Position numbers and translations under genes: made by a program. A model generated the notes under the pieces. That model worked only from the letters and a program-made list of their open reading frames with translations, did not search any database and was not told the DNA's origin. A stretch of DNA of 64,000 bases from Saccostrea cucullata (Eukaryota). Shown piece after piece: positions 1 to 17,956 of the stretch (position 1 is its first letter; every line of letters starts with the position of its first letter). The stretch covers positions 128,655 to 192,654 of the forward strand of contig NW_026925150.1 in NCBI RefSeq assembly GCF_032062105.1, given 5' to 3'.

Positions 1-247
1 TACCTTTAATAATTTGTTTCTATATAATGAATACGTTAAAAAGTCTAACATTCCTAATGTTTTACTGAGCGGTCATAAAAAATCCATGTTTGACTGGGGA
101 GTGAGATGTTCGAAACATTGACGTCGGAAGCAAATTGAAAGTTGGGGGGGGGGGGGGGCTAAGTGTTAAAAAAAATGTACCTTCAAAAAAACCTGATAAG
201 CAAAAAATAATAATAATAATGAATAATAAAATGAAATGCATACTATG

Positions 248-333
248 GAATTCCATATAGACAGCCAACTGCTTACTGCCAACTGCTGACTGCTTACTGC
301 CAACTGCCAGCTGCTTACTGCCAGCTGCCACAC
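248..333. repeat. Minisatellite of CTGCTTACTGCC / CAACTGCCAGCTG units
   Basis: cagccaactgcttactgccaactgctgactgcttactgccaactgccagctgcttactgccagctgcc. ORF 62..406 spans it and is not credible coding. Confidence 0.8.
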
Positions 334-575
334 AAACTTGAATAAATTTTATTTTTATATTGATATTAATGTGAATTTTCACAAAAGAGAAGAATGAAGA
401 CAACAAAACCTTTGAAGAGAGAAAAATAAAAAAAAGCTTTGTCGTTTGGCAGAGAAATGTTTTAAAAATAAATTAACATTTTTCTATTATATTCTATAGT
501 TAAAAATTTCCTCAGATGTGAAAGGTATAATATCTCTGTGTGTTATAATGTTTCACATACATAGATTTTTTTTTT

Positions 576-592
576 GGGGGGGGGGGGGGGGG
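576..592. repeat. T10 then G17 homopolymer junction (another G15 run at 144..158)
   Basis: Read directly from the sequence. Confidence 0.9.
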
Positions 593-1681
593 CATTTAAA
601 ATTTATACAGTCATGGGTTAATGTATGAACTAAACAAACTAAAACTTACCTTGGACCCTCCACTTAGAAAACGCCGATCAAACATTTTTATCTCTTTGTT
701 TTTACAAATAAGATATGTATTACATGCATAGATCTAGAGAGAGGGGTCCGGACCACCCCTCTGAAATTTGTAAAGTTATTTATTGCACAAACTAAACCAG
801 CTAAAAATTATGTAGATTATTTTAGATATTTAGAAATTTAGAATTTTGATTCAAATACTCAAATTTTAGATAACCAAAAAAACTTTTTACATTCTGAGTT
901 TTTAGAAGTTTACTTCAAATATCCAAAATATCAAATTCGAAACCCCTTTTGAATTTTGAAACTATGCCAAAAAAGTGTTTGGTCGAGCAAATGAGGTTTT
1001 AAGATATTTAGAGTATTGAATAGATACGGACATAGTTTCAAAATTCAAATCAGGTTTGAAAATTTGATATTTTGGATATCTGAGGTAAAAATCTAAAATC
1101 TCCGAGTGTTTCGGTTATTTGATATATGAATGTTTGAACTAAAATTCTTAATTTCAAAAAAATATAAGACGTTTTGAAATAGTTGAAATTTAGAAGTTTG
1201 AAGTAAATTTTGAAATATCAAAAGTCGTAAAACTGTTAAGAAATTTGAAAAATTTAGATTTTTGAACTAAAATACTAAATTTCAATATACCAAATTCAGT
1301 TTGAGTTTTTGATATTTAGAAATTTGAACTTATGTATTTACATTCTAAAACTCTAAATAATTTTTAAAAAATGAATTGTGAAGTGTAACACGGAGCATTA
1401 TTATATTTCATGAATTAAAAATTGTTGAAATTGTAGCAATTGCTTTGAATGCTACTTCCACCAGCACTATTTGTATATCAAAATTACTTTATCCACGGAA
1501 TCAGTCATCTTGACGTTGTACAACCCATTCCTTCATTAAAAGATTTTGAGAAAAAAAAATATTTCACTAAGCATAGTTCAAGCCTCCTTATTTTATTTGT
1601 CTCCAAAATGTTTACATAATATAGAATTACACATTCTCAATTTAATATATACAACTAAATCTATAAAATAATTCGTAATTA

Positions 1682-1687
1682 TTTATT
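1682..1687 (-). promoter_or_regulatory. Candidate polyadenylation signal (AATAAA on minus strand) about 65 nt past the amidohydrolase stop
   Basis: Plus-strand TTTATT at 1682..1687, downstream of the stop at 1753 in an AT-rich 3' region. Confidence 0.4.
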
Positions 1688-1752
1688 GATACAATATTTT
1701 AGATGCAGCTAAATTTGAAAGAAAGTTACAAAATTTAGAAATTAAAAAATAT

Positions 1753-3654
1753 CTAGTAATGGTCGCAGCCATTGTAATAGCACTCTCCTTCGTCAACCGT
1801 ACAGGTGACATCCGTGATGAAATCATTTCTTTTCCAGAAAACCTCCTCACCCTCCAGTACGGTTTGGAGGACTTGGGTTTGATAAATGGAGTCCTTATTA
1901 GAAGGATCCATGATGTCCGTGTCGATAACGACAAAATCAGCATGTTTTCCTACTTCCAGGGATCCAACATCATCTTCCTGCCGCATAGCGTAAGCGGCAT
2001 TGATTGTATACATCTCCACGGCTGATTTGATGTTGATAGACTGATGTCCTCTAGAAATAGCGTGCTGGAGGCCCACAAAGGGGTTCAGATCACTGACATC
2101 CCAGTCGCTGCTTAGTGTCACCTTAGCCCCAGTGTCAAACACGCTTTTTACGGGAATGGACTTGTACGCCCTGTCTTCTCCAACCAATTTTGAAAGTGTT
2201 TTTCGATAAGAGGGTAGAGTAAAGTTTCCAGCGACTTGGAAGTCAGCAATGACATTTAAACGTGCGAAGCGGTCGATATCCATCTCATCAACTTGTTCCA
2301 AGTGAGTCATTCGATGACGAGTGCCATGGATCCACGAATCATTGAACGCATTCAGTGCTTGATGAACACCACGGTCGCCAATTGCATGAATATGGAAATC
2401 AAAGCCTTTGCCTGCAGCAAAGTGCTGAAGTTCTCTGACGTACTTCGTTAAACGGGTTTGGTCAAAAATATTCATGCCTCTGTTGTCAGGAATACCAGGT
2501 AAATGCAAGTTCTCCAAATAGGGTTCCTCCATGGCGGCGGTTGTACTTTCTAGCAAGCCATCAATGTACACTTTAATTTGATTTTTCTTCAAGAAGCAAT
2601 CTGGGTTACCGTTAGTGTAAATGTCTTTCAGTTTTTGAATTTGGTATTCGTCTTCCTTCTGTGGATATGCCCAAAGTCCAAGATTAGCACGCACCGTCAA
2701 TTTGTCTTCTCTACATACCCTATCCCACGCTTTGTCGTGATTTCGAGTCCAAAACAACCTGGCATCACATACTGAGGTTATGCCATTAGTGTTTAATTTT
2801 TCAAGACCATATATAAGTCCTTGATAATTAAGTTCCTCTAACTCAGCCGTTGGCTTCAAGGCAAATTCCATGATGGATATACCCTCATCCTCTAGAAGAA
2901 TTCCATTAGGCTCATTGGTTACAGGTTCTCTCATGATAACGCCACCAGGTCTTCTCGTTGTGTTTTTTGTGATATTAGCCAGTTGGAGTGCCTTGGTATT
3001 CACCCAAACTGAATGCGATGTTTCCTCCAACATGACAACTGGGACATCTGGTAAAACTTCATCAATTATCTTCCTTGGTGGTTTTCCACCATTCCTGATG
3101 TGTTTCAAAATACTTGATATTGAATGACCGCCTCCAAGAATCCATTTTGTTCCTATCTGCCTTTTGGCACATGTTCTGAAAATGTTTTTAAATTCTTCAC
3201 TATCGGGGTCTGTGTTTGGCTTCAGCTGACATGTACCACCAACATCCGACGCTGACTCTAAGGGATGAATATGGACATCATGGAATCCTGGAAGTATTGT
3301 TGCACCGTGGAGATTCAACACCGTGCTCCGACATGTGAAATACTCCAAAGCCTCACTGGATGTTCCTATGAAACTAACTTTACCGTTTTTCACAACCATG
3401 GCTTCCTGTGGAGTTTCATTCCAGCGTTGACCGTGAACAGTATAAATTTTCCCATTGATGTATATTGTACTGGCTTCTTCCCTGTACCATCTTTGTTCTA
3501 AAACTCTTCGGTCACATTGTTGCTGATCACCGAGTATGCATTGAATTCTCTTCAATAACCGATCTTTGCGAGAAAGTTGTTGGTTGAGCGGAATACTTTT
3601 TCCAGCTGCAAATCCAAGCACTCCGAAAATCATCAGATACTTCACAATTTTCAT
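1753..3654 (-). CDS. Amidohydrolase-3 family (YtcJ-like) metal-dependent hydrolase, intronless, with N-terminal signal peptide or anchor
   Basis: 670-codon minus-strand ORF 1753..3765. Contains GKIYTVHG near the N-terminus, HDVHIHPLES (HxH metal site), FDFHIHAIGDRGV, THLEQV, SSDWDVSD and the C-terminal GSLEVGKHADFVVID motif, all typical of the Amidohydro_3 fold. The hydrophobic MKIVKYLMIFGVLGFAAG segment at the in-frame ATG 3654 argues this is the real start. The ORF is also open upstream to 3765. An AATAAA signal lies on the minus strand at 1682..1687. Confidence 0.85.
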   Translation of the reverse strand: MKIVKYLMIFGVLGFAAGKSIPLNQQLSRKDRLLKRIQCILGDQQQCDRRVLEQRWYREEASTIYINGKIYTVHGQRWNETPQEAMVVKNGKVSFIGTSSEALEYFTCRSTVLNLHGATILPGFHDVHIHPLESASDVGGTCQLKPNTDPDSEEFKNIFRTCAKRQIGTKWILGGGHSISSILKHIRNGGKPPRKIIDEVLPDVPVVMLEETSHSVWVNTKALQLANITKNTTRRPGGVIMREPVTNEPNGILLEDEGISIMEFALKPTAELEELNYQGLIYGLEKLNTNGITSVCDARLFWTRNHDKAWDRVCREDKLTVRANLGLWAYPQKEDEYQIQKLKDIYTNGNPDCFLKKNQIKVYIDGLLESTTAAMEEPYLENLHLPGIPDNRGMNIFDQTRLTKYVRELQHFAAGKGFDFHIHAIGDRGVHQALNAFNDSWIHGTRHRMTHLEQVDEMDIDRFARLNVIADFQVAGNFTLPSYRKTLSKLVGEDRAYKSIPVKSVFDTGAKVTLSSDWDVSDLNPFVGLQHAISRGHQSINIKSAVEMYTINAAYAMRQEDDVGSLEVGKHADFVVIDTDIMDPSNKDSIYQTQVLQTVLEGEEVFWKRNDFITDVTCTVDEGECYYNGCDHY

Positions 3655-5112
3655 GCTGCCGATCACACTTTTCCGAAAAACTGACAAAATCCAGTTTTTA
3701 AACCTTTTTAAGGTGGATCTATACCTAGGAAGGAATTTACAGAAACACAACCGAGACAGAATCAATATTATTTTTAAAAATAGATATAAAAATACAATTA
3801 AAATTATTTTTACAATAACACCCCGGAAACGTTTTATTTGCTGACGAAGTTTTCAACACAAAACTGCAATTGTGACACGGTCAACATTAGATCCTACGTA
3901 AAATACAGTAATGATTAATTGTTCATGTTTTTATTTGCTTTTTTGAAAACTCAATTACTACACACCACTAAGCTTCCGTAACAGGTGTTTTAGTCGTTAA
4001 CATGTAAACAATAGCCATTGAATAACATCTGAATCAACAGTTCTCTGATCCGAGTGCAAAAAGAAAAATATGCGAAAAAACAGCATACTTCGTGTAAGTT
4101 ATTTAAAGAAGACTGAGATAATGATAAACATGGATGTGCATAAAAAAAATAATCAAAATTGTTGCTTTCCCTACTCTATAATGTGTTATATACCACATAC
4201 ATGTAGATGTACATTGTATTAAATAACATCAACGTTTTTGCTTCGGTGCCCATGAACAATTCTTCGTAGTCTTTAGACAAGACAAAGTGAAATACAGGCA
4301 ATGGACTCTAATATACACGGTAAAAGTGTCAAAATTCTTAAACATTTTCTTTGAAATTAAACAAATTCCTTATTAATTGAAGGTTTTATATTTCCTTTTG
4401 AATTTATTATCATTTTTTTTTTGCGTTGATTTTTTAAAAACATGATTGTCACTTTCAACAACATGCGACCCGGCATACTTCGAGAAACCATGTTCAAAGC
4501 CACTGAAGTTCTGATGACTAGATATAACTGCATGTTGTTTCCTGTTGCTCCCTTAATAGGGACAAATACATGCAAATTATTATATATGTTCTCCTATTCA
4601 AATATTACTTAAGGTATTGAAAAAAAAAAATAAATTTAAAATAAAATCTATTTCGCTTTCAATCTCATGAAATTTTACTCGATCTGTCCAAAAGTAAAGA
4701 CAAATTAATATTCCTTTTCCCGAATGTGTTTAGACAGTTCTCAATATATTTCTTTTCTCTTTCCATCTCAAAACATGTAATGGGTAGTGCATTTTTTTTT
4801 TTAATTTTCAATTTTCCCTATCTTACCATCTCTGATAAATCGTAGTTATGTATAATGCATGCATTGACTATATTGAGATACAGATACGTTATGCCTGGTA
4901 GATTCCAATGAATTCAGGTCCGTGATTTTAATGTTTAGATATTCATTGAAGTGCTAGCGTTCAACGAATACTTTAAAAACAACCTTTAACCCAAAATTTC
5001 AATGACGCTCTTTTCCCCATTCATCCCTGTAAACTTCCGTGTTTATTAATTTTATACGATAAGAGTTATTTTCACTTCCCTGGCTTATGCAGTGGACATT
5101 AACCTAAACGAT

Positions 5113-7782
5113 ATGGCCAAGTTTAGTATATACCGTTTCTTCCAAATATCATGCACTTTATATGCATTGCTTGTTACATGTTCTCTGTATGGAGTTAGTT
5201 CCGACCGTGAAGACTCTGATAAATGGAAATCCTGTAATTTCAGTGAGGCAACATGTAAATGTTTGAAACTCGACGAAGGGTCCATTAAGGCAGACTGTTC
5301 TCATTTACACTTGAATCAAGTTCCAATATTTCCACATAACGTGGTCTGGATTAACCTTCAATTTAACTCGATTGAAAATATTTCCGTCAGTTATCCGAAA
5401 AACCTGTTGTATTTGGATCTTTCTCACAACAGCATTTTTTCCTTTAAAGGTGATCCTTTTGACACTATCCCAAGGCTAAAGTATTTGAATCTATCCAGTA
5501 ATAGACTAAGTCTAAATGAGAAGAATTTTTATCCAGGACTTTTTCAGCCTTTAGAATCCTTGTTAGTTTTGAACTTGAAAAACAATTCTGTAAAGATGCA
5601 ACGAAACTGGAGTTATATTGGAGAAATTCTCAGTGAATTGATTTCGTTAGAGGAACTACGATTGGATGCAGTGGGAAACTTTTTACTTACAGAAGGTTTT
5701 TACAGACTAAAGAATCTTAGTCTATTGGACATCTCCGGTTCAAGAGGACATTGTGAAACTGTAAAAATCACACACGACTTTTTTCTCAACACACCATATC
5801 TTCAATATCTAGATATATCATCTTGTAAAATCAAACATATTGAGAGAGGTGCATTCGAAATTTTAAGGAATTTAAAATCGTTGGACATTTCTTACAACAA
5901 AGAATTAGGTTTTGCTTCACTCCCAAATATAACATATAATCTAAAGAGGACGTCAATCAAAATACTTTATTTACATAATATTAATTGTTTGACGGGATTG
6001 GGAAAAAGACTGTTAATTCGCCATGTCATGAACCTGAGAAAAACCAAGTTAGAAGAGATAATCTTATCCAGAAATAGATTGGAACTGTTCGAAAGAGGCC
6101 TTGTGCGACATTTACCACCAACCCTTGAAAGGTTATCCTTGGCCGAGAACAAACTATTACAAGGTCCATACATAGCAGACTTTATTGGCTTTCATAATTT
6201 GACTATGTTTAATATGAGTCTACAGTTTCAACCACCAGAATACATGACTGCAGTCTTCGAACTTTGCAAAGAAAATCAAGATGACCTGGAGCCTTTTAAC
6301 TTCTCAATGCACAGTCATTCTACAAATTTCTCAACCTTTCTCCACAACTTTAGAAAATTCTACAGGATTGAAGTTTCTCACTGGAAACCAGTTATATTTG
6401 TACATATTCCTGAAAATCTCCAAACAATATATGTTAACGATAGTAGGCTGTATTCCAAGATATCTGCATTTGGTGTAATTGCACCGAAATTGAGGCATAT
6501 GTTCTTTCAAAATAATATATTGAATGAATGGATAGGACCAATGTACGGGATACAAAACGTTACTCGTATTGATCTCTCGAATAATTTCTGTACGAAACTG
6601 TCATCCGATTTCTTTGTTAATGCAACAGGACTTTTACATCTCAATATTTCTAGAAACTCTGTTGGAGATAATCTTGAGAGAGACATGAATGGACTTGTAT
6701 TTAGAAATTTGGTTTCGGTAGAAACATTGGACTTAAGCTCCAATAAGATTTATCATTTGCCGTATTTACTCTTGAAAAGATCTCGGAATATCAGGACATT
6801 GATTCTTAACAATAATCAACTTTCTGAGTTGAGGATCGGCGTGGGACATATGCATCACTTAGAACATCTTGATTTATCTGAAAATAGAATAGATTCTATC
6901 AGGGATGAAATCAGACAGGAACTGACTGATTTGATAAGGCTAAAAAACACGTCCATAGATCTATCTGGGAATAACGTTGACTGCTCGTGTGAAAATGTTC
7001 CATACATCCAGTGGATGGTTGAACATAAAAAAAATTTCAAAAGATTTGATGACTACGAATGTGCCATAAAAAGTCAGAAAAATTTCAATTTCAGCGATCC
7101 TGTTGTATCTCTTAAATCATTGGTAGTGGAATGCCGATCTTACACCACATTCTACATTGTTGCATCCATAGTCTTGACCATTTTAGTTTTCGTGGTCATC
7201 GCTGTGTTAGTGAAAAGAAATATTTGGACAATAAGATTTTCCATCTATCAATGTAAACAAAAAGTAAAAACAGGAGGTCGATATATGCAAATATTATATC
7301 AGAGAAACCGATTGAACTACACATATGACATATTTATTTCATATTCTGCCCGGGATCGAGAACTTGTTATGAAGAAACTTCTGTTGAAATTACAAGATTT
7401 AAACCTTGACGTCTGCATTCGTGAGAGAGACTTTTTAGCAGGTCGTCATAAAGCTGACAATATAATGGACGCGATAGAGAGCAGCAAAATGACACTTTGT
7501 GTTGTTTCGGAATCTTATCTAAAGTCAGGCTGGAGGGATTACGAACTAAACATGGCAAAACTCGAGGGTATAAAAAAGAGAGAAGGACTTCATTACGTAT
7601 ATTTAATAATTCTTCCAGGAGCCTACGATTTGAAGCGAAAATGTCCGAATTCCCTGAAGGATTTGATCAATGAAAACCTTTTTTGTCATTATCCTTCTGA
7701 GGAATCAATGGATGAACTGGATATATTTTGGAAGGACTTTTCCAGTGTTGTTGCTCATAAAATAAAAACTTTTAGCATTTAG
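5113..7782 (+). CDS. Toll-like receptor (LRR ectodomain, LRRCT, single TM, cytoplasmic TIR), single exon, paralogue A
   Basis: ORF 5092..7782 (the track start is GTG). ATG at 5113 gives signal peptide MAKFSIYRFFQISCTLYALLVTCSLYG. Many LxxLxLxxN LRRs with N-glycosylation sites, LRRCT cysteines (CSCENVPYIQWM...YECA), TM FYIVASIVLTILVFVVIAVLV, TIR box1 YDIFISYSARD and box3 FW. AATAAA at 7966. Confidence 0.9.
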   Translation: MAKFSIYRFFQISCTLYALLVTCSLYGVSSDREDSDKWKSCNFSEATCKCLKLDEGSIKADCSHLHLNQVPIFPHNVVWINLQFNSIENISVSYPKNLLYLDLSHNSIFSFKGDPFDTIPRLKYLNLSSNRLSLNEKNFYPGLFQPLESLLVLNLKNNSVKMQRNWSYIGEILSELISLEELRLDAVGNFLLTEGFYRLKNLSLLDISGSRGHCETVKITHDFFLNTPYLQYLDISSCKIKHIERGAFEILRNLKSLDISYNKELGFASLPNITYNLKRTSIKILYLHNINCLTGLGKRLLIRHVMNLRKTKLEEIILSRNRLELFERGLVRHLPPTLERLSLAENKLLQGPYIADFIGFHNLTMFNMSLQFQPPEYMTAVFELCKENQDDLEPFNFSMHSHSTNFSTFLHNFRKFYRIEVSHWKPVIFVHIPENLQTIYVNDSRLYSKISAFGVIAPKLRHMFFQNNILNEWIGPMYGIQNVTRIDLSNNFCTKLSSDFFVNATGLLHLNISRNSVGDNLERDMNGLVFRNLVSVETLDLSSNKIYHLPYLLLKRSRNIRTLILNNNQLSELRIGVGHMHHLEHLDLSENRIDSIRDEIRQELTDLIRLKNTSIDLSGNNVDCSCENVPYIQWMVEHKKNFKRFDDYECAIKSQKNFNFSDPVVSLKSLVVECRSYTTFYIVASIVLTILVFVVIAVLVKRNIWTIRFSIYQCKQKVKTGGRYMQILYQRNRLNYTYDIFISYSARDRELVMKKLLLKLQDLNLDVCIRERDFLAGRHKADNIMDAIESSKMTLCVVSESYLKSGWRDYELNMAKLEGIKKREGLHYVYLIILPGAYDLKRKCPNSLKDLINENLFCHYPSEESMDELDIFWKDFSSVVAHKIKTFSI

Positions 7783-7965
7783 ATTTGAGATTTATATCCA
7801 AGGAAAGACATGTGTTAACAATTCAAACTATAATATTAATGATATGTATCTGTGTCTTGGCACTAGAGCAGAAATATTCGCAAGTATGAAAAGGCGAAAT
7901 GATATAAACACGGGTCGAAAAATAAGTCTATATACAGTATAGTCATTTGATATAAAAAAAAATTA

Positions 7966-7971
7966 AATAAA
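7966..7971 (+). promoter_or_regulatory. Candidate polyA signal for TLR-A
   Basis: AATAAA about 185 nt downstream of the stop at 7782. Confidence 0.3.
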
Positions 7972-8180
7972 CAAATTGAATTTTTGTTATAAAGTCTTTC
8001 TTTTTTTTTAAAGGGAACATTTCGCTTAGGTTTTCATCAAAATTTAATATTGTAAGTTCTTGTGAACAGTCTATGCAGCCAAAAGCAATATAGACAGAAG
8101 ATATCTGACAATTTATTCAGACATAGTAAGCAACTCAGTAAGTAACAAACTTTATTACATACCTAATGTATATCACTCAA

Positions 8181-8480
8181 TTTTACTGTTGATTTTACGT
8201 TATCACGTGACTTCGTAATAAGACTTTCCGGATCACCACACTGTGGTTTTCTGAATCCATATCACCGCTCTCTGAGACTGAGGACGTTTTACACAGAAAC
8301 ATGACGTTATTTTTCTTGCGCGTTAAAAATTCCCTTGTTATTATGCTTTGTGTTTTGAATAAATGTTAAACAATTGATCTCTAAAGATTTCTCTTGCTAT
8401 ATTTTGCTAGTTATGAGGAGGTATATAATAAATTTATCATTTTAGCAGTAACTTGATCCGAAGGGTCGTATCACGTCTTG
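8181..8480 (+). repeat. Conserved ~300-bp 3'-flank module, copy 1 (downstream of TLR-A)
   Basis: Aligns by eye at roughly 75-80% identity with 14570..14885. Shared blocks include gattttacgt, gactttccggatcacca, tacacagaaacatg, aattgatctctaaag, tagttat-agga-gt-atataat-aa-tttatcatt and gatccgaag. Confidence 0.7.
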
Positions 8481-8894
8481 TTGACAGGCGCGGATCATCA
8501 GATCAAACTCGACGCTTCTAAAATTATCTTAGATAAAAAAAGTAGACTTATATAAGACAATTACCAGGTTAACAGGTTTTTAAAAATCTATTTATTGTGT
8601 AAAACAATCACTTATCAAGAGTGTATGTTTTTTTTATTAAGTACTTATCGTGTCACGCGTACGATTATAAAATTTACGTTTTTTTACCCACTACAATTCT
8701 TCAAACTTAAGTACCCTCTCTACACAAATGCAAAATGTGTTTTTTTTTTTTTTTGGATACCGCGAAAAATATATTGTATAAAGGAGTCAATATTGAGCTT
8801 ATCTACCTAATTTTCACTGTATGGTGCGTGACATTTATCAACACAGTATCAGTGAATAGAATTCACTGTTGTTTACTTCCATAGTGAAAAACCG

Positions 8895-13261: not shown

Positions 13262-14460
13262 TTTGAAATAATTCAACCAAACCAACAAGGAAGAAGATAT
13301 TATCGCTTTTAATAAAGCATTAGGATTTGTTTCTCTCCCAATCGTTACTTATGGTCTAAAAGAGACTTCTATTGAAACTTTTAACGCTGACGCTATTCGT
13401 TGTCTTATAGTAACAGGAACAAATTACTGTAACCGTGTTACATTCGCAAACTTACAAAAAGAAAAACTCATTAAACACCAAAGGATGGAGCTACTTCATT
13501 TGTGACTGGTAATTGGTTTTTTTTCCAAACAAGCCAAAAATGCGTGAGAGGTTGTCATTTGCGCTTACTCGTCTTACAACAGGAATAATTTTCTTTGAAT
13601 TTCACACCCTGCATAATTTGAAGGCATTAAATATGACTTTTCTTTTGAAGCCAACAAGGTATTTTACCTTTGTTTTTGAAATATGCAACAAAGAGAAAGA
13701 GTTGAACTCCAAGTGTCAATGAGTGCAAGATATTCAAAGACATATTTAAAATTTCGTTCTTCAAATATAACAGTGTATATGCCACCGAAACTTGAAACAT
13801 TCTATGCAAATTTTAGCACATTAACGACAGAATACCAAATTTAAGGTTAAGTGTAAATAAAATGAAGAATTTACACGCACAGAACAATGTCATGTTTTTC
13901 TTTAATCGACCTCTTTTTGGTTTTAAAATGCTTGAAAGGGTAGATTTTTCGAATAACTTTTGCTCTAGTATATCTCCAACTTTAAAACAGCGAGTGGCAA
14001 GAGTCTGAAATATATAAACATTTCATAAACATAAACATTTTATCACTTTCAATACATTTAGACTACAGCTGCCAGCTATTTAAAAATCAACTCTAGCTGG
14101 AGGTTCTATTCTATCCAGCAACAAAATTTCGCATTTACCAGATTGTATTTTTAATCCATGGCTGAATTAAAAGCTCTTAAACTTACCAGTTGTCTCATAT
14201 GAGTTTCAGGATCAAACATATGATTAATGTTTTACCCTGGATTTCTCAATTAATCGAATAACAACTTTTTTTAGTTCAAATAATGTTTCGCTTCCATACA
14301 TCTTCTCTAGGTCAAAAGATTCAACAAGTCTATCTCATTCTAATGCCAGATATTTTCGAGGGTGGTTTTAATATGAAAATAAAAGATTTTATCTATCAGA
14401 AATCTTTCATCGATTATTCTCTCGAAGACCCCCGCTTACGGGAGTTATTCTGAGAAGATC
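13262..14460 (+). pseudogene. Decayed, 5'-truncated and internally deleted TLR paralogue (fragments colinear with TLR-B)
   Basis: NKALGFVSLPIVTYGLKETSIETF and FNADAIRCLIVTGTN..QRMELLH at 13300..13500. ORF 13513..13722 (LSFALTRLTTGIIFFEF..LNMTFLLKP) matches TLR-B LSLALNRLTTGRYLFEF..FNMTLLLKP. 13861..13995 has VQNN..FSNNFCSSISP matching DLSDNFCSRISP. 14330..14460 has VYLILMPDIFEGG...KDFI..DYSLEDP matching the TLR-B C-terminus VRLILMPDLFEGG. Stops, frameshifts and large deletions throughout. Confidence 0.75.
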
Positions 14461-14569
14461 TGATCCGTATTATAAAAATTCTTTACTTTTAATGCATCTG
14501 AACAGACGAAGTTTTCAGTACATATTTTAGAATATACACATTTATTTTATACCAAGCTGTGTATCACAA

Positions 14570-15254: not shown

Positions 15255-15307
15255 CGGTGTTTTAGTGGGTTAACAACATGCAGAACGCATATCAGTAGAA
15301 ATTGACC

Positions 15308-17956
15308 ATGGAAATTTATTGCTGGTTATTGGTTGTGTATTTGTATTACTTTCAAGGAATATTAATTGCTACGGAAAGTACGTACTTATGTAATGTATGT
15401 AAGTGTACCAGATTAAAAAGAGGATTGAAAATAGATTGCAGTGGTCAACTGAAAAAAGAATTTAAAATCACTTCACTTCCAGTGGATACGATGTGGATAG
15501 ATTTAAGTGAAAATTACATAAAGGAAATTAACTGGAGATTTCCGAAGAAAATCGAATTCATTAATTTGTCAAGAAACAATATTTCAGCCCTCCTTGGTAA
15601 ACCTTTCAGTGGACTTAAAAATTTGAGATATTTGAATCTCGAACAGAATAATCTAAGTCTCTCGGAAGCAATCTATTACCAGGATTTGTTTCTTTCACTT
15701 CGGAGATTGGAAACTTTGAATATTAAGAAAAACACAAACACTTACGTGAATTCAAATTCAATCGACAGAACCTTTTCAAGACTTGTTTCTTTGAAAAAAC
15801 TTAAAATTGACATACCACTTAATTTTACTTTTGGTGAAGGATTTAAAAATCTTCGGAAGCTTTCTGTTCTTGACGCTTCAGGAATAACAGGTTTTTGCAA
15901 TATTTGGAGTTTATCTTCAGATTTCTTCAAAAACATACCTTTTCTGAAGGAGATCGATGTAAGTAAATGTAAAATATCTCATATTTCTAAAGGGCCTTTC
16001 AAATTGCTCCAAAACCTGAAAAAACTCGATATCTCCCACAATAAGGAATTAGGATTTGCATCTCTCCCAAATACAACATTTGGCCTGAACGAAACATCAA
16101 TCAATTTTTTTTACGCAGACGATATCCATTGTACACTTGGCATAGGAACGAAGATGACATTTTCTCATATCGAGAATTTGCGGTATACAAAACTTGTTGA
16201 GGCCTCCTTTGCACAAAATAGGATTGAGTTAATAGGAAAAGGTGTTTTGAAAAAGATGCCTTCAACGTTGGAAAAACTGTCTTTGGCTTTAAACCGACTC
16301 ACAACAGGAAGATATCTTTTTGAATTTTCCTCTCTGCGTAAATTGAAAGAATTTAACATGACACTTCTTTTGAAACCCATAACAAATTTTCCGGAAGTTT
16401 TTGAGGAATGCATCGAAAAGAAAGATTTTGAAATATCAGTACAAGTTGAGTCGAGTAAAATTAAGTACAAGGAATATTCAAAGGAACAAATAAAAAGACT
16501 TAATCGGCCAAACATAACAGTTTACAGTCCTCCAAATCTTATAACAATTTATGCTAATTCAAGCAAATTATATGGAGGATTTCCAAAAGTAACATTGAAT
16601 GCAACGAAATTGAGAAACATATACGTACAGAATAATTTGTTCTTTTCCTGGGATAAACCCGAGTTTGGACTTGAGCTTGTCGAAAATTTAGATTTGTCGG
16701 ACAATTTCTGTTCTAGAATATCCCCTCGTTTTACTGCAAGCGGTACAGGATTAAAATACTTAAATATTGCAAGAAACTTTTTGTCTCGACCAATTCAAAT
16801 GGACATAAGATGTCATTTGTTTAAATATCAGCGAAACCTTGAAGAATTTGATCTTTCAAACAACAGACTTTTTCACCTGCCAATCTGTACTTTTCAAAAT
16901 ATGGTAAAGTTAAGAATACTTAAACTAAATCACAATCAATTGACCGGAGTAAACTTCAGACTTCGTCACATGACTAACCTTTCTTATATTGATCTCTCCG
17001 ATAACAGATTAACGGGCTTTACAAATGAAACAATGCATGCGTTTTCCTATATCTTCAAAAAATCAAAAGTATCGATAAATTTACTAAGGAACAACTTGTA
17101 TTGTAAATGCCAAAATCTAAAATTCTTGACGTGGTTGTATGAAAACAGAATGCATTTCTTAGGTTTTCAAAAGTATACTTGTTCAGATCGTAGCAATCAG
17201 TTCAATTTTCATTATATGGAACAATCTCTACAAAAACTCCAGCTTGACTGTATAGATTATGACGTTTGGATAATTACAACAACTGTCTCGATAACTCTTA
17301 TGACGAGTGTCATACTTGTGATAATTATTGGGAAAAACATCTGGCACATAAGGTATTTCCTGCATAAAAGTAAACGACATAATGACGGTTTTACCTCAAC
17401 CATAAAAGAAGAGGAGCTTTTTAATCTGCTAACGGAACCCGATTTGCTAAGTTCAATAGCTGATGAAAGCTTTGAAAGAACAAGTCCATATCAAATGATG
17501 CAAGGACAAGGGCGATATTTTTACCATGCATTTATATCCTACGTAGGCGAGAATAGGGGATTCGTATTTCAGAAGATGAAACCAAAGCTGGAAGCGAAAG
17601 GTTTGAAGTTATTGATTCGTGATATTCATTTCGAAATTGGTAATTCTAAAATTGATAACATCATGAAAGCAATCGGGAGGAGTCAAAGAACTATCTGCGT
17701 TGTGTCGAAAGCGTATCTGAAATCAAAATGGCGAATATATGAATTAAATATGGCGAAAATGGAAGGTTTAAAGGAAAGAGGATCCCTTGGATATGTCCGT
17801 CTTATTCTGATGCCTGATTTGTTTGAAGGAGGTTGTGACACAGCTATTAAAGATTTTATCGAGAAAAAATTATTTCTTGACTACCCACCGGAAGATTCCT
17901 CTCTGCAGGAGGAATTCTGGGAAAATCTTATTCGCGTGATCAAGAACACAGGGTAA
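15308..17956 (+). CDS. Toll-like receptor (LRR ectodomain, LRRCT, single TM, cytoplasmic TIR), single exon, paralogue B
   Basis: ORF 15302..17956 (the track start is TTG). ATG at 15308 gives signal peptide MEIYCWLLVVYLYYFQGILIA. LRRNT cysteines, LRR series, LRRCT (CKCQNLKFLTWL..YTCSD), TM VWIITTTVSITLMTSVILVIIIG, TIR box1 YHAFISYVGEN and box3 FW. Roughly 35-40% identity to TLR-A by eye, with shared blocks LDISxNKELGFASLPN and YELNMAK.EG. Confidence 0.9.
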   Translation: MEIYCWLLVVYLYYFQGILIATESTYLCNVCKCTRLKRGLKIDCSGQLKKEFKITSLPVDTMWIDLSENYIKEINWRFPKKIEFINLSRNNISALLGKPFSGLKNLRYLNLEQNNLSLSEAIYYQDLFLSLRRLETLNIKKNTNTYVNSNSIDRTFSRLVSLKKLKIDIPLNFTFGEGFKNLRKLSVLDASGITGFCNIWSLSSDFFKNIPFLKEIDVSKCKISHISKGPFKLLQNLKKLDISHNKELGFASLPNTTFGLNETSINFFYADDIHCTLGIGTKMTFSHIENLRYTKLVEASFAQNRIELIGKGVLKKMPSTLEKLSLALNRLTTGRYLFEFSSLRKLKEFNMTLLLKPITNFPEVFEECIEKKDFEISVQVESSKIKYKEYSKEQIKRLNRPNITVYSPPNLITIYANSSKLYGGFPKVTLNATKLRNIYVQNNLFFSWDKPEFGLELVENLDLSDNFCSRISPRFTASGTGLKYLNIARNFLSRPIQMDIRCHLFKYQRNLEEFDLSNNRLFHLPICTFQNMVKLRILKLNHNQLTGVNFRLRHMTNLSYIDLSDNRLTGFTNETMHAFSYIFKKSKVSINLLRNNLYCKCQNLKFLTWLYENRMHFLGFQKYTCSDRSNQFNFHYMEQSLQKLQLDCIDYDVWIITTTVSITLMTSVILVIIIGKNIWHIRYFLHKSKRHNDGFTSTIKEEELFNLLTEPDLLSSIADESFERTSPYQMMQGQGRYFYHAFISYVGENRGFVFQKMKPKLEAKGLKLLIRDIHFEIGNSKIDNIMKAIGRSQRTICVVSKAYLKSKWRIYELNMAKMEGLKERGSLGYVRLILMPDLFEGGCDTAIKDFIEKKLFLDYPPEDSSLQEEFWENLIRVIKNTG

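Follow-up and report, generated by a model that had tools for sequence, protein, structure and literature searches.

TLR-A is a Toll-like receptor (TLR) gene of the hooded oyster Saccostrea cucullata. We analysed it in a 64,000-nucleotide stretch of DNA (RefSeq assembly GCF_032062105.1, contig NW_026925150.1, positions 128,655 to 192,654 of the forward strand), hereafter the window. The coding sequence occupies positions 5113..7782 of the window (+ strand). In the TIR domain of the encoded receptor, alanine replaces the BB-loop proline. We conclude, with a probability of roughly 60%, that TLR-A is a working, constrained receptor that still uses MyD88-type adaptors. The alanine is a recent and recurrent replacement and would, at most, tune signalling. 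An initial annotation of the window had read the same residue as a sign of altered adaptor usage, or of a regulatory or decoy role. That interpretation is mostly unsupported. It carries a vertebrate rule into a lineage where the rule fails.

Alanine at the BB-loop proline position

The TIR domain was modelled as the segment 7315..7779 (+). It is identified by Pfam (TIR and TIR_2), by an AlphaFold2 model and by Foldseek. Box 1 (YDIFISY, strand A) lies at 7324..7344, Box 2, which forms the BB loop (RDFLAG), at 7426..7443 and Box 3 (FW) at 7726..7731, all on the + strand. The S and Y of Box 1, and F138 and W139 of Box 3, are invariant in an alignment of 27 sequences. Boxes 1 and 3 are intact, as initially annotated. 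Box 2 was placed by direct reading, by phmmer alignment and in the AlphaFold2 model.

The BB-loop stretch of TLR-A is CIRERDFLAGRHKADN. At the nucleotide level, positions 7420-7458 (+) read CGT GAG AGA GAC TTT TTA GCA GGT CGT CAT AAA GCT GAC, which translate to RERDFLAGRHKAD. The alanine codon, GCA, is at 7438..7440 (+). It specifies residue 776 when numbering begins with the ATG at 5113, or residue 783 from a mechanically assigned GTG start. When all PDB chains were searched with phmmer, human TLR2 (1fyw) was the top match (E = 2.1e-16). In this alignment, TLR-A CIRERDFLAGRHKADNI pairs gaplessly with TLR2 CLHKRDFIPGKWIIDNI and Ala776 falls on Pro681. The structure of the P681H mutant of TLR2 (1fyx) gives an identical alignment to TLR-A.

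The AlphaFold2 model was built with 26 homologues. It has a predicted local distance difference test score of 93.4 and a predicted template modelling score of 0.89. Strand A (model residues 4-9), helix A (12-28), strand B (33-34) and a turn (36-39) are followed by an unstructured loop at 40-45 (F-L-A42-G-R-H) and by helix B (46-55). The best PDB neighbours found by Foldseek were the TIR domains of TLR15, TLR1, TLR5, TLR2, Hydra TRR-2, TLR10 and TLR6. The structure-based placement combines the secondary structure of the model with the gapless sequence alignment; the Foldseek matches apply at the level of the fold, not of single residues.

A shifted alignment, the objection that the initial annotation itself had raised, was considered and rejected. 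In the 165-residue TIR query (7285-7779), RDFLAG is at positions 48-53 and prolines occur at positions 111, 121 and 137 only. There is no proline within ~57 residues downstream of RDFLAG, and none upstream as far back as Box 1. The whole stretch from Box 1 to where strand D ends is free of proline. Hence, no realignment could place a proline in the BB loop. The alignment in the initial annotation, made by eye, was therefore correct, and both the alignment and the structural model now confirm its claim that the canonical proline is missing. Ala776 takes the place of the BB-loop proline, and the loop in which it sits connects strand B to helix B. Consequently, TLR-A departs from the rule for MyD88-coupled vertebrate receptors, RDxxPG, in which proline directly precedes the invariant glycine.

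Origin of the alanine within Saccostrea

The syntenic orthologue of TLR-A in Saccostrea echinata is XP_061169396.1. It is 83% identical to TLR-A overall and 86% identical in the TIR domain. The S. echinata locus and the window share one gene order, in which a minus-strand Amidohydro_3 gene is followed by TLR-A or its orthologue and then by a further TLR gene. However, the orthologue keeps the canonical proline, with RDFLPGRE where TLR-A has RDFLAGRH. The corresponding codons are CCT (Pro) in S. echinata and GCA (Ala) at 7438-7440 of the window. Proline is also found in the outgroup representative P0005, and in the Crassostrea/Magallana clade (IRDRDY[IL]PG). In a neighbour-joining tree, the arrangement is (P0005[Pro],(S. 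echinata[Pro],(TLR-A[Ala],P0002[Ala]))). RDFLAG is also present in XP_062602853.1, a second copy from S. cucullata with 94% identity to TLR-A.

Since the orthologue and the outgroups have proline, the alanine is derived within Saccostrea and does not descend from an ancestor shared with TLR3. Ala776 is thus genuine. The change from CCN to GCA is recent and specific to this lineage, and it followed the split between S. cucullata and S. echinata.

From strand B to strand D, the core of the TIR domain differs from that of S. echinata at ~5 positions, two of which are in the BB loop (A/P and H/E). We rejected an enrichment of substitutions near Box 2. Counted by eye from the alignment of TLR-A with the S. 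echinata sequence, ~4 substitutions fall in ~19 residues near Box 2 and ~22-24 in the ~150 residues of the TIR domain, and this difference is too small. Separately, a Gln-Asp pair ends helix A at 7393-7398. As read from the alignment, TLR-A has Gln here (KLQDLNLDVC) and S. echinata has Glu (KLEELNLDVC). This adds a second small difference to the surface that carries the replacement of proline by alanine.

Recurrence among invertebrate receptors

We searched 1.84 billion cluster representatives exhaustively with HMMER and recovered 4138 relatives at E <= 0.001. When the TIR domain of TLR-A was used in a word-indexed homology search, the single match was a Mytilus coruscus protein with 30% identity. 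Residues were counted in 177 TIR stretches from the best 150 of the 4138 representatives, with multi-TIR proteins contributing several stretches each. The BB-loop column contains P (120), A (22), V (10), I (9), L (5), G (4), F (3), S (2) and R (1). Hence, alanine is the second commonest residue (22/177, ~12%), and about one third of stretches (~32%) have something other than proline. At this column the alanine of TLR-A, a single residue, is statistically unremarkable.

The history of the column was reconstructed by Fitch parsimony on a neighbour-joining tree of 142 full-length TIR segments (BLOSUM62 distances). Proline is ancestral and at least 24 changes are required, including ~10 independent gains of alanine, which is a rough count from a crude tree. 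One clade was founded by alanine; of its eight representatives, seven have alanine and one has valine. Proteins lacking the proline come from Mytilus species, Mya arenaria, Mactra antiquata, Haliotis rubra and insects. For instance, the dipteran Anastrepha ludens "protein toll-like" has RDWLVG and RDWLAG. Drosophila Toll, which signals through dMyD88, probably has valine at this site. Insect Tolls are like TLR-A in lacking the proline, and in them this goes together with a working MyD88 pathway. They have several ectodomain cysteine clusters, bind the cytokine Spaetzle and are only distantly related to TLR-A. Replacement of the BB-loop proline recurs often in the TIR domains of invertebrate TLRs and Tolls.

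Published conservation patterns agree with these counts. Toshchakov and Neuwald (PMC7075850) describe 2763 "group 3" TIR domains, from Toll and plasma-membrane TLRs, that conserve E-x(8)-C-x-H-x-R-D-F-x-x-G. The proline site is an "x" in this pattern, so proline is not listed as conserved. Conversely, the same authors find P-G conserved in TIR domains of the IL-1R family, endosomal TLRs and TIRAP. Our literature search for papers that explicitly describe Drosophila Toll or mollusc TLRs as lacking the BB-loop proline returned only this general TIR survey. The initial annotation held that the proline is critical for recruitment of MyD88 in vertebrate TLRs. This stands as a vertebrate rule but does not extend to Toll and plasma-membrane TLR TIR domains as a class (PMC7075850). 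Hence, the formula "BB-loop proline for MyD88, alanine for TRIF" is not transferable to invertebrate TLRs, where the residue at this site varies and has changed many times over.

BB-loop residues also vary within single proteins. Four multi-TIR relatives, P0004 (Ostrea edulis XP_056016928.1), P0006, P0007 and P0022, have two to four TIR stretches each. P0004 combines IDFEAG with IDFEVG, and P0007 has P, L, I and F.

TLR-A resembles TLR2 rather than TLR3

Human TLR3 does have alanine at the BB-loop site, as the initial annotation stated. Its TIR domain (PDB 7wv3_A) reads CLEERDFEAG. PMC10161769, citing Verstak 2013, likewise gives alanine for TLR3. It also reports that the A795P substitution switches the adaptor of TLR3 from TRIF to MyD88, and that P681H and P712H abolish signalling in human receptors. 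According to a mutational study of TLR2 (PMC3634009), its residues L663, P681 and N688 are shared by every human TLR apart from TLR3, which has E, A and A, respectively.

TLR-A shares the alanine with TLR3 (RDFLAG and RDFEAG) but shows nothing else that is TLR3-like. By phmmer, its TIR domain matches TLR2 (E = 2e-16), TLR1 (8e-15), TLR6 (1e-13) and TLR10 (6e-9) far better than TLR3 (5.5e-4). At the positions of TLR2 L663 and N688, the phmmer alignment places Leu and Asn in TLR-A, as in MyD88-coupled TLRs, where TLR3 has Glu and Ala. As described above, the alanine is not shared with TLR3 by descent; rather, it is a recent convergence. We rejected orthology with, or special similarity to, TLR3 on the basis of the phmmer scores, the tree and the Leu and Asn positions.

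The human TLR2/1/6/10 TIR domains are the best sequence matches of TLR-A (E of 2e-16 to 1e-13 for TLR2/1/6) and are among its best fold matches (template modelling score ~0.7). Across Box 2 the alignment has no gap, and Leu and Asn at TLR2 positions 663 and 688 are common to both. The difference is at 681, where the human receptors have the proline needed for full MyD88 recruitment and TLR-A has alanine. No member of this human group is an orthologue of TLR-A.

One alternative is that the replacement redirects TLR-A from classical MyD88 to a different adaptor, which might be SARM, another paralogue of MyD88 or an orphan TIR protein of bivalves, in parallel with TLR3, where alanine specifies TRIF. 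The reported effect of A795P on TLR3 (PMC10161769) points this way, as does the location of two of the ~5 core differences from S. echinata in the BB loop. In addition, the adaptor repertoire of oysters is expanded and their TLRs differ in MyD88 binding (PMC7381170). Crassostrea gigas has 83 TLR genes and ten MyD88-like genes, six encoding death and TIR domains and four encoding TIR only. In yeast two-hybrid assays, only one of four virus-induced C. gigas TLRs bound both CgMyD88-1 and CgMyD88-2. Hence, pairing of receptors with adaptors in oysters is already paralogue-specific. However, TRIF-like TIR domains are reported from jawed vertebrates only (PMC7075850). TLR-A is far nearer to TLR2/1/6 than to TLR3 and keeps Leu and Asn. 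Furthermore, alanine was gained ~10 times, residues other than proline are common in the nearest relatives, Drosophila Toll signals through dMyD88 with what is probably a valine, and the dipteran protein carries both RDWLVG and RDWLAG. We consider a switch of adaptor unlikely, and the same evidence speaks against TLR3-like or TRIF-like adaptor usage.

Constraint on the TIR domain

Selection was assessed from the ratio of non-synonymous to synonymous substitution rates (dN/dS), using pairwise Nei-Gojobori estimates for one species pair, TLR-A and its S. echinata orthologue. The synonymous divergence (dS) is ~0.43. Over the whole gene the ratio is 0.21. By region, the ectodomain has 0.23, the transmembrane and juxtamembrane segment 0.085 and the TIR domain 0.17. 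The TIR domain of TLR-A is under purifying selection.

These values bear on a second alternative, related to the decoy role suggested in the initial annotation. Loss of the proline might weaken adaptor recruitment so that TLR-A acts as a ligand sink or as a dampening partner in heterodimers. In human TLR2, P681A lowers TLR2/1 and TLR2/2 responses and MyD88 recruitment (PMC3634009), and mutants with histidine in place of proline are null (PMC10161769). The neighbouring paralogue, TLR-B, has a still more divergent Box 2, and oysters use TIR-only competitors such as CgMyD88s (PMC7381170). Yet a degenerate receptor should have relaxed constraint on the TIR domain or lost motifs. Instead, the TIR ratio is as low as, or below, that of the ectodomain, although purifying selection is still compatible with a conserved decoy. 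Box 1, R-D-F...G of Box 2 and Box 3 are intact, and the TIR fold of the model is regular and predicted with confidence. Alanine at this site is also compatible with strong signalling, as in TLR3. Moreover, TLR2 P681A is a partner-dependent hypomorph rather than a null, since at a high dose of agonist TLR2/6 signalling is almost fully retained (PMC3634009). An attenuated or decoy receptor is improbable on this evidence.

We also considered whether an error of sequencing or assembly had produced the alanine, or whether TLR-A is a decaying pseudogene. Gene decay does occur in this cluster, with a true TLR pseudogene 5.5 kb downstream. However, the 889-residue ORF (open reading frame) of TLR-A is uninterrupted and identical to the RefSeq model, the second S. 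cucullata copy has the same RDFLAG, and dN/dS is 0.21. We rejected this explanation, which is barely credible.

Proposed signalling by TLR-A

The reading that TLR-A is a working receptor using MyD88-type adaptors implies the following scheme. Ligand-driven dimerisation would bring TIR domains of TLR-A together. The joined domains would then nucleate MyD88-family adaptors through TIR-TIR contacts. Replacement of proline by alanine retains a small hydrophobic residue before the invariant glycine, and most plausibly would be neutral or have a tuning effect. By analogy with human TLR2 P681A, it may at most tune signal strength, or the preference for an adaptor paralogue or co-receptor. The adaptor preference of TLR-A may have shifted quantitatively or at the level of paralogues.

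Several points weigh against this reading. Use of MyD88-type adaptors by TLR-A is presumed solely from family membership. The same position is functionally sensitive in human receptors (P681H, P712H and A795P), and by analogy an effect in the oyster is possible. Two of ~5 core differences within the BB loop could weakly hint at directed change, but the numbers are too small to test. The estimate of constraint is a single pairwise Nei-Gojobori value. Finally, the neighbour-joining tree is crude, and relatives were surveyed only among the 150 best cluster representatives.

TLR-A had already been annotated and is an ordinary receptor within the TLR family that has expanded in bivalves. The alanine is real but ordinary, and as it stands matters little. 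Its added value is a clean natural contrast of Ala and Pro between close oyster orthologues, in a lophotrochozoan with ~10 MyD88-like genes. It is conceivable, though quite doubtful, that in this natural pair the BB-loop residue re-assigns the S. cucullata receptor (Ala) among MyD88-like or TIR-only adaptors relative to its S. echinata counterpart (Pro), or makes it a dampening partner. If so, the pair would be an invertebrate counterpart of the TLR3 A795P switch and, given that two of ~5 core substitutions are in the BB loop, possibly an adaptive one.

Architecture and classification of TLR-A

The TLR-A coding sequence is intronless and specifies 889 amino acids plus a stop codon. The enclosing ORF (5092..7782) gives 896 amino acids from the mechanical GTG start. 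Translated from the ATG at 5113, TLR-A is 100% identical over 889 amino acids to XP_062606374.1, "toll-like receptor 4 [Saccostrea cucullata]". Pfam detected LRR_8 in five stretches (E = 2.9e-35), TIR_2 (2e-14) and TIR (5.6e-13). Together with the RefSeq identity, these matches establish that TLR-A is a TLR, as first annotated.

The leucine-rich repeat (LRR) ectodomain, taken as the span of Pfam LRR matches, is at 5338..6996 (+). In ORF numbering, the first LRR_8 stretch covers residues 83-139 and an LRR_14 match extends up to residue 635. Cysteine-rich caps, read directly from the translation, flank the repeats (CNFSEATCKC...DCS and DCSCENVPY...YEC...VEC). Between the C-terminal cysteine cluster and the TIR domain is a hydrophobic 21-mer, FYIVASIVLTILVFVVIAVLV (7150..7212, + strand), also read from the translation, which is predicted to be a transmembrane helix. 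Hence, one polypeptide combines an LRR ectodomain, a single predicted transmembrane helix and a C-terminal TIR domain.

TLR-A is a single-cysteine-cluster ("V-type") receptor in a tandem TLR cluster. It carries the TIR signature of Toll and plasma-membrane TLRs, namely YDIFISY, CIRERDFLAG and FW, with Arg replacing a His that is 60% conserved. It is like bivalve V-type TLRs and the group 3 TIR domains of Toshchakov and Neuwald (2020) in its order of LRR, transmembrane and TIR regions, in Box 1, in the pattern C-x-[H/R]-x-R-D-F-x-x-G and in Box 3. Bivalve V-type TLRs also share the uninterrupted coding sequence, the tandem cluster and the lineage-specific expansion. We found no essential difference from either class. 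Two details vary. The oyster clade of TLR-A has Arg for the His of C-x-H-x-R-D (CIRERD), and the "x" before Gly is Ala in TLR-A where the majority of relatives have Pro.

Neighbouring loci

TLR-B, a tandem paralogue of TLR-A, is encoded at 15302..17956 (+) by an ORF of 884 amino acids with 36% identity. Its Box 2 is LIRDIHFEIG, in which the Arg-Asp pair and the proline are all replaced. The same sequence is kept in the S. echinata orthologue of TLR-B (P0154, 78% identity) and in P0009 and P0013. Elsewhere in the clade, P0010 and P0155 have IRDIHFELG, and P0004 and P0008 of Ostrea edulis have IRDIDFEAG. Judged from these sequences, the whole oyster clade of TLR-B conserves a strongly divergent BB loop, more unusual than the alanine of TLR-A.

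The interval between TLR-A and TLR-B contains a decayed TLR fragment (13302..14477, + strand), recovered as tblastn fragments with stops and frameshifts in all three frames. TLR-A, unlike this pseudogene, has neither stops nor frameshifts. The pseudogene testifies to the birth and death of genes within the tandem cluster.

From 18000 to 64000, the remaining 46 kb of the window, there is no ORF of at least 150 amino acids and the G+C content is 33.7%. This part presumably holds intron-rich genes or repeats.

Upstream of TLR-A, a long uninterrupted ORF is found on the minus strand (1753-3765; 670 amino acids from a mechanical start). Its syntenic counterpart, at 6614-8515 of the S. echinata locus, encodes 633 amino acids with Pfam matches to Amidohydro_3 and Amidohydro_1. 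Hence, an intronless metal-dependent amidohydrolase, for which a bacterial origin is conceivable, adjoins the immune-receptor cluster. Beyond the amidohydrolase, positions 1-3170 (-) of the S. echinata locus encode a major vault protein (Vault and MVP_shoulder).

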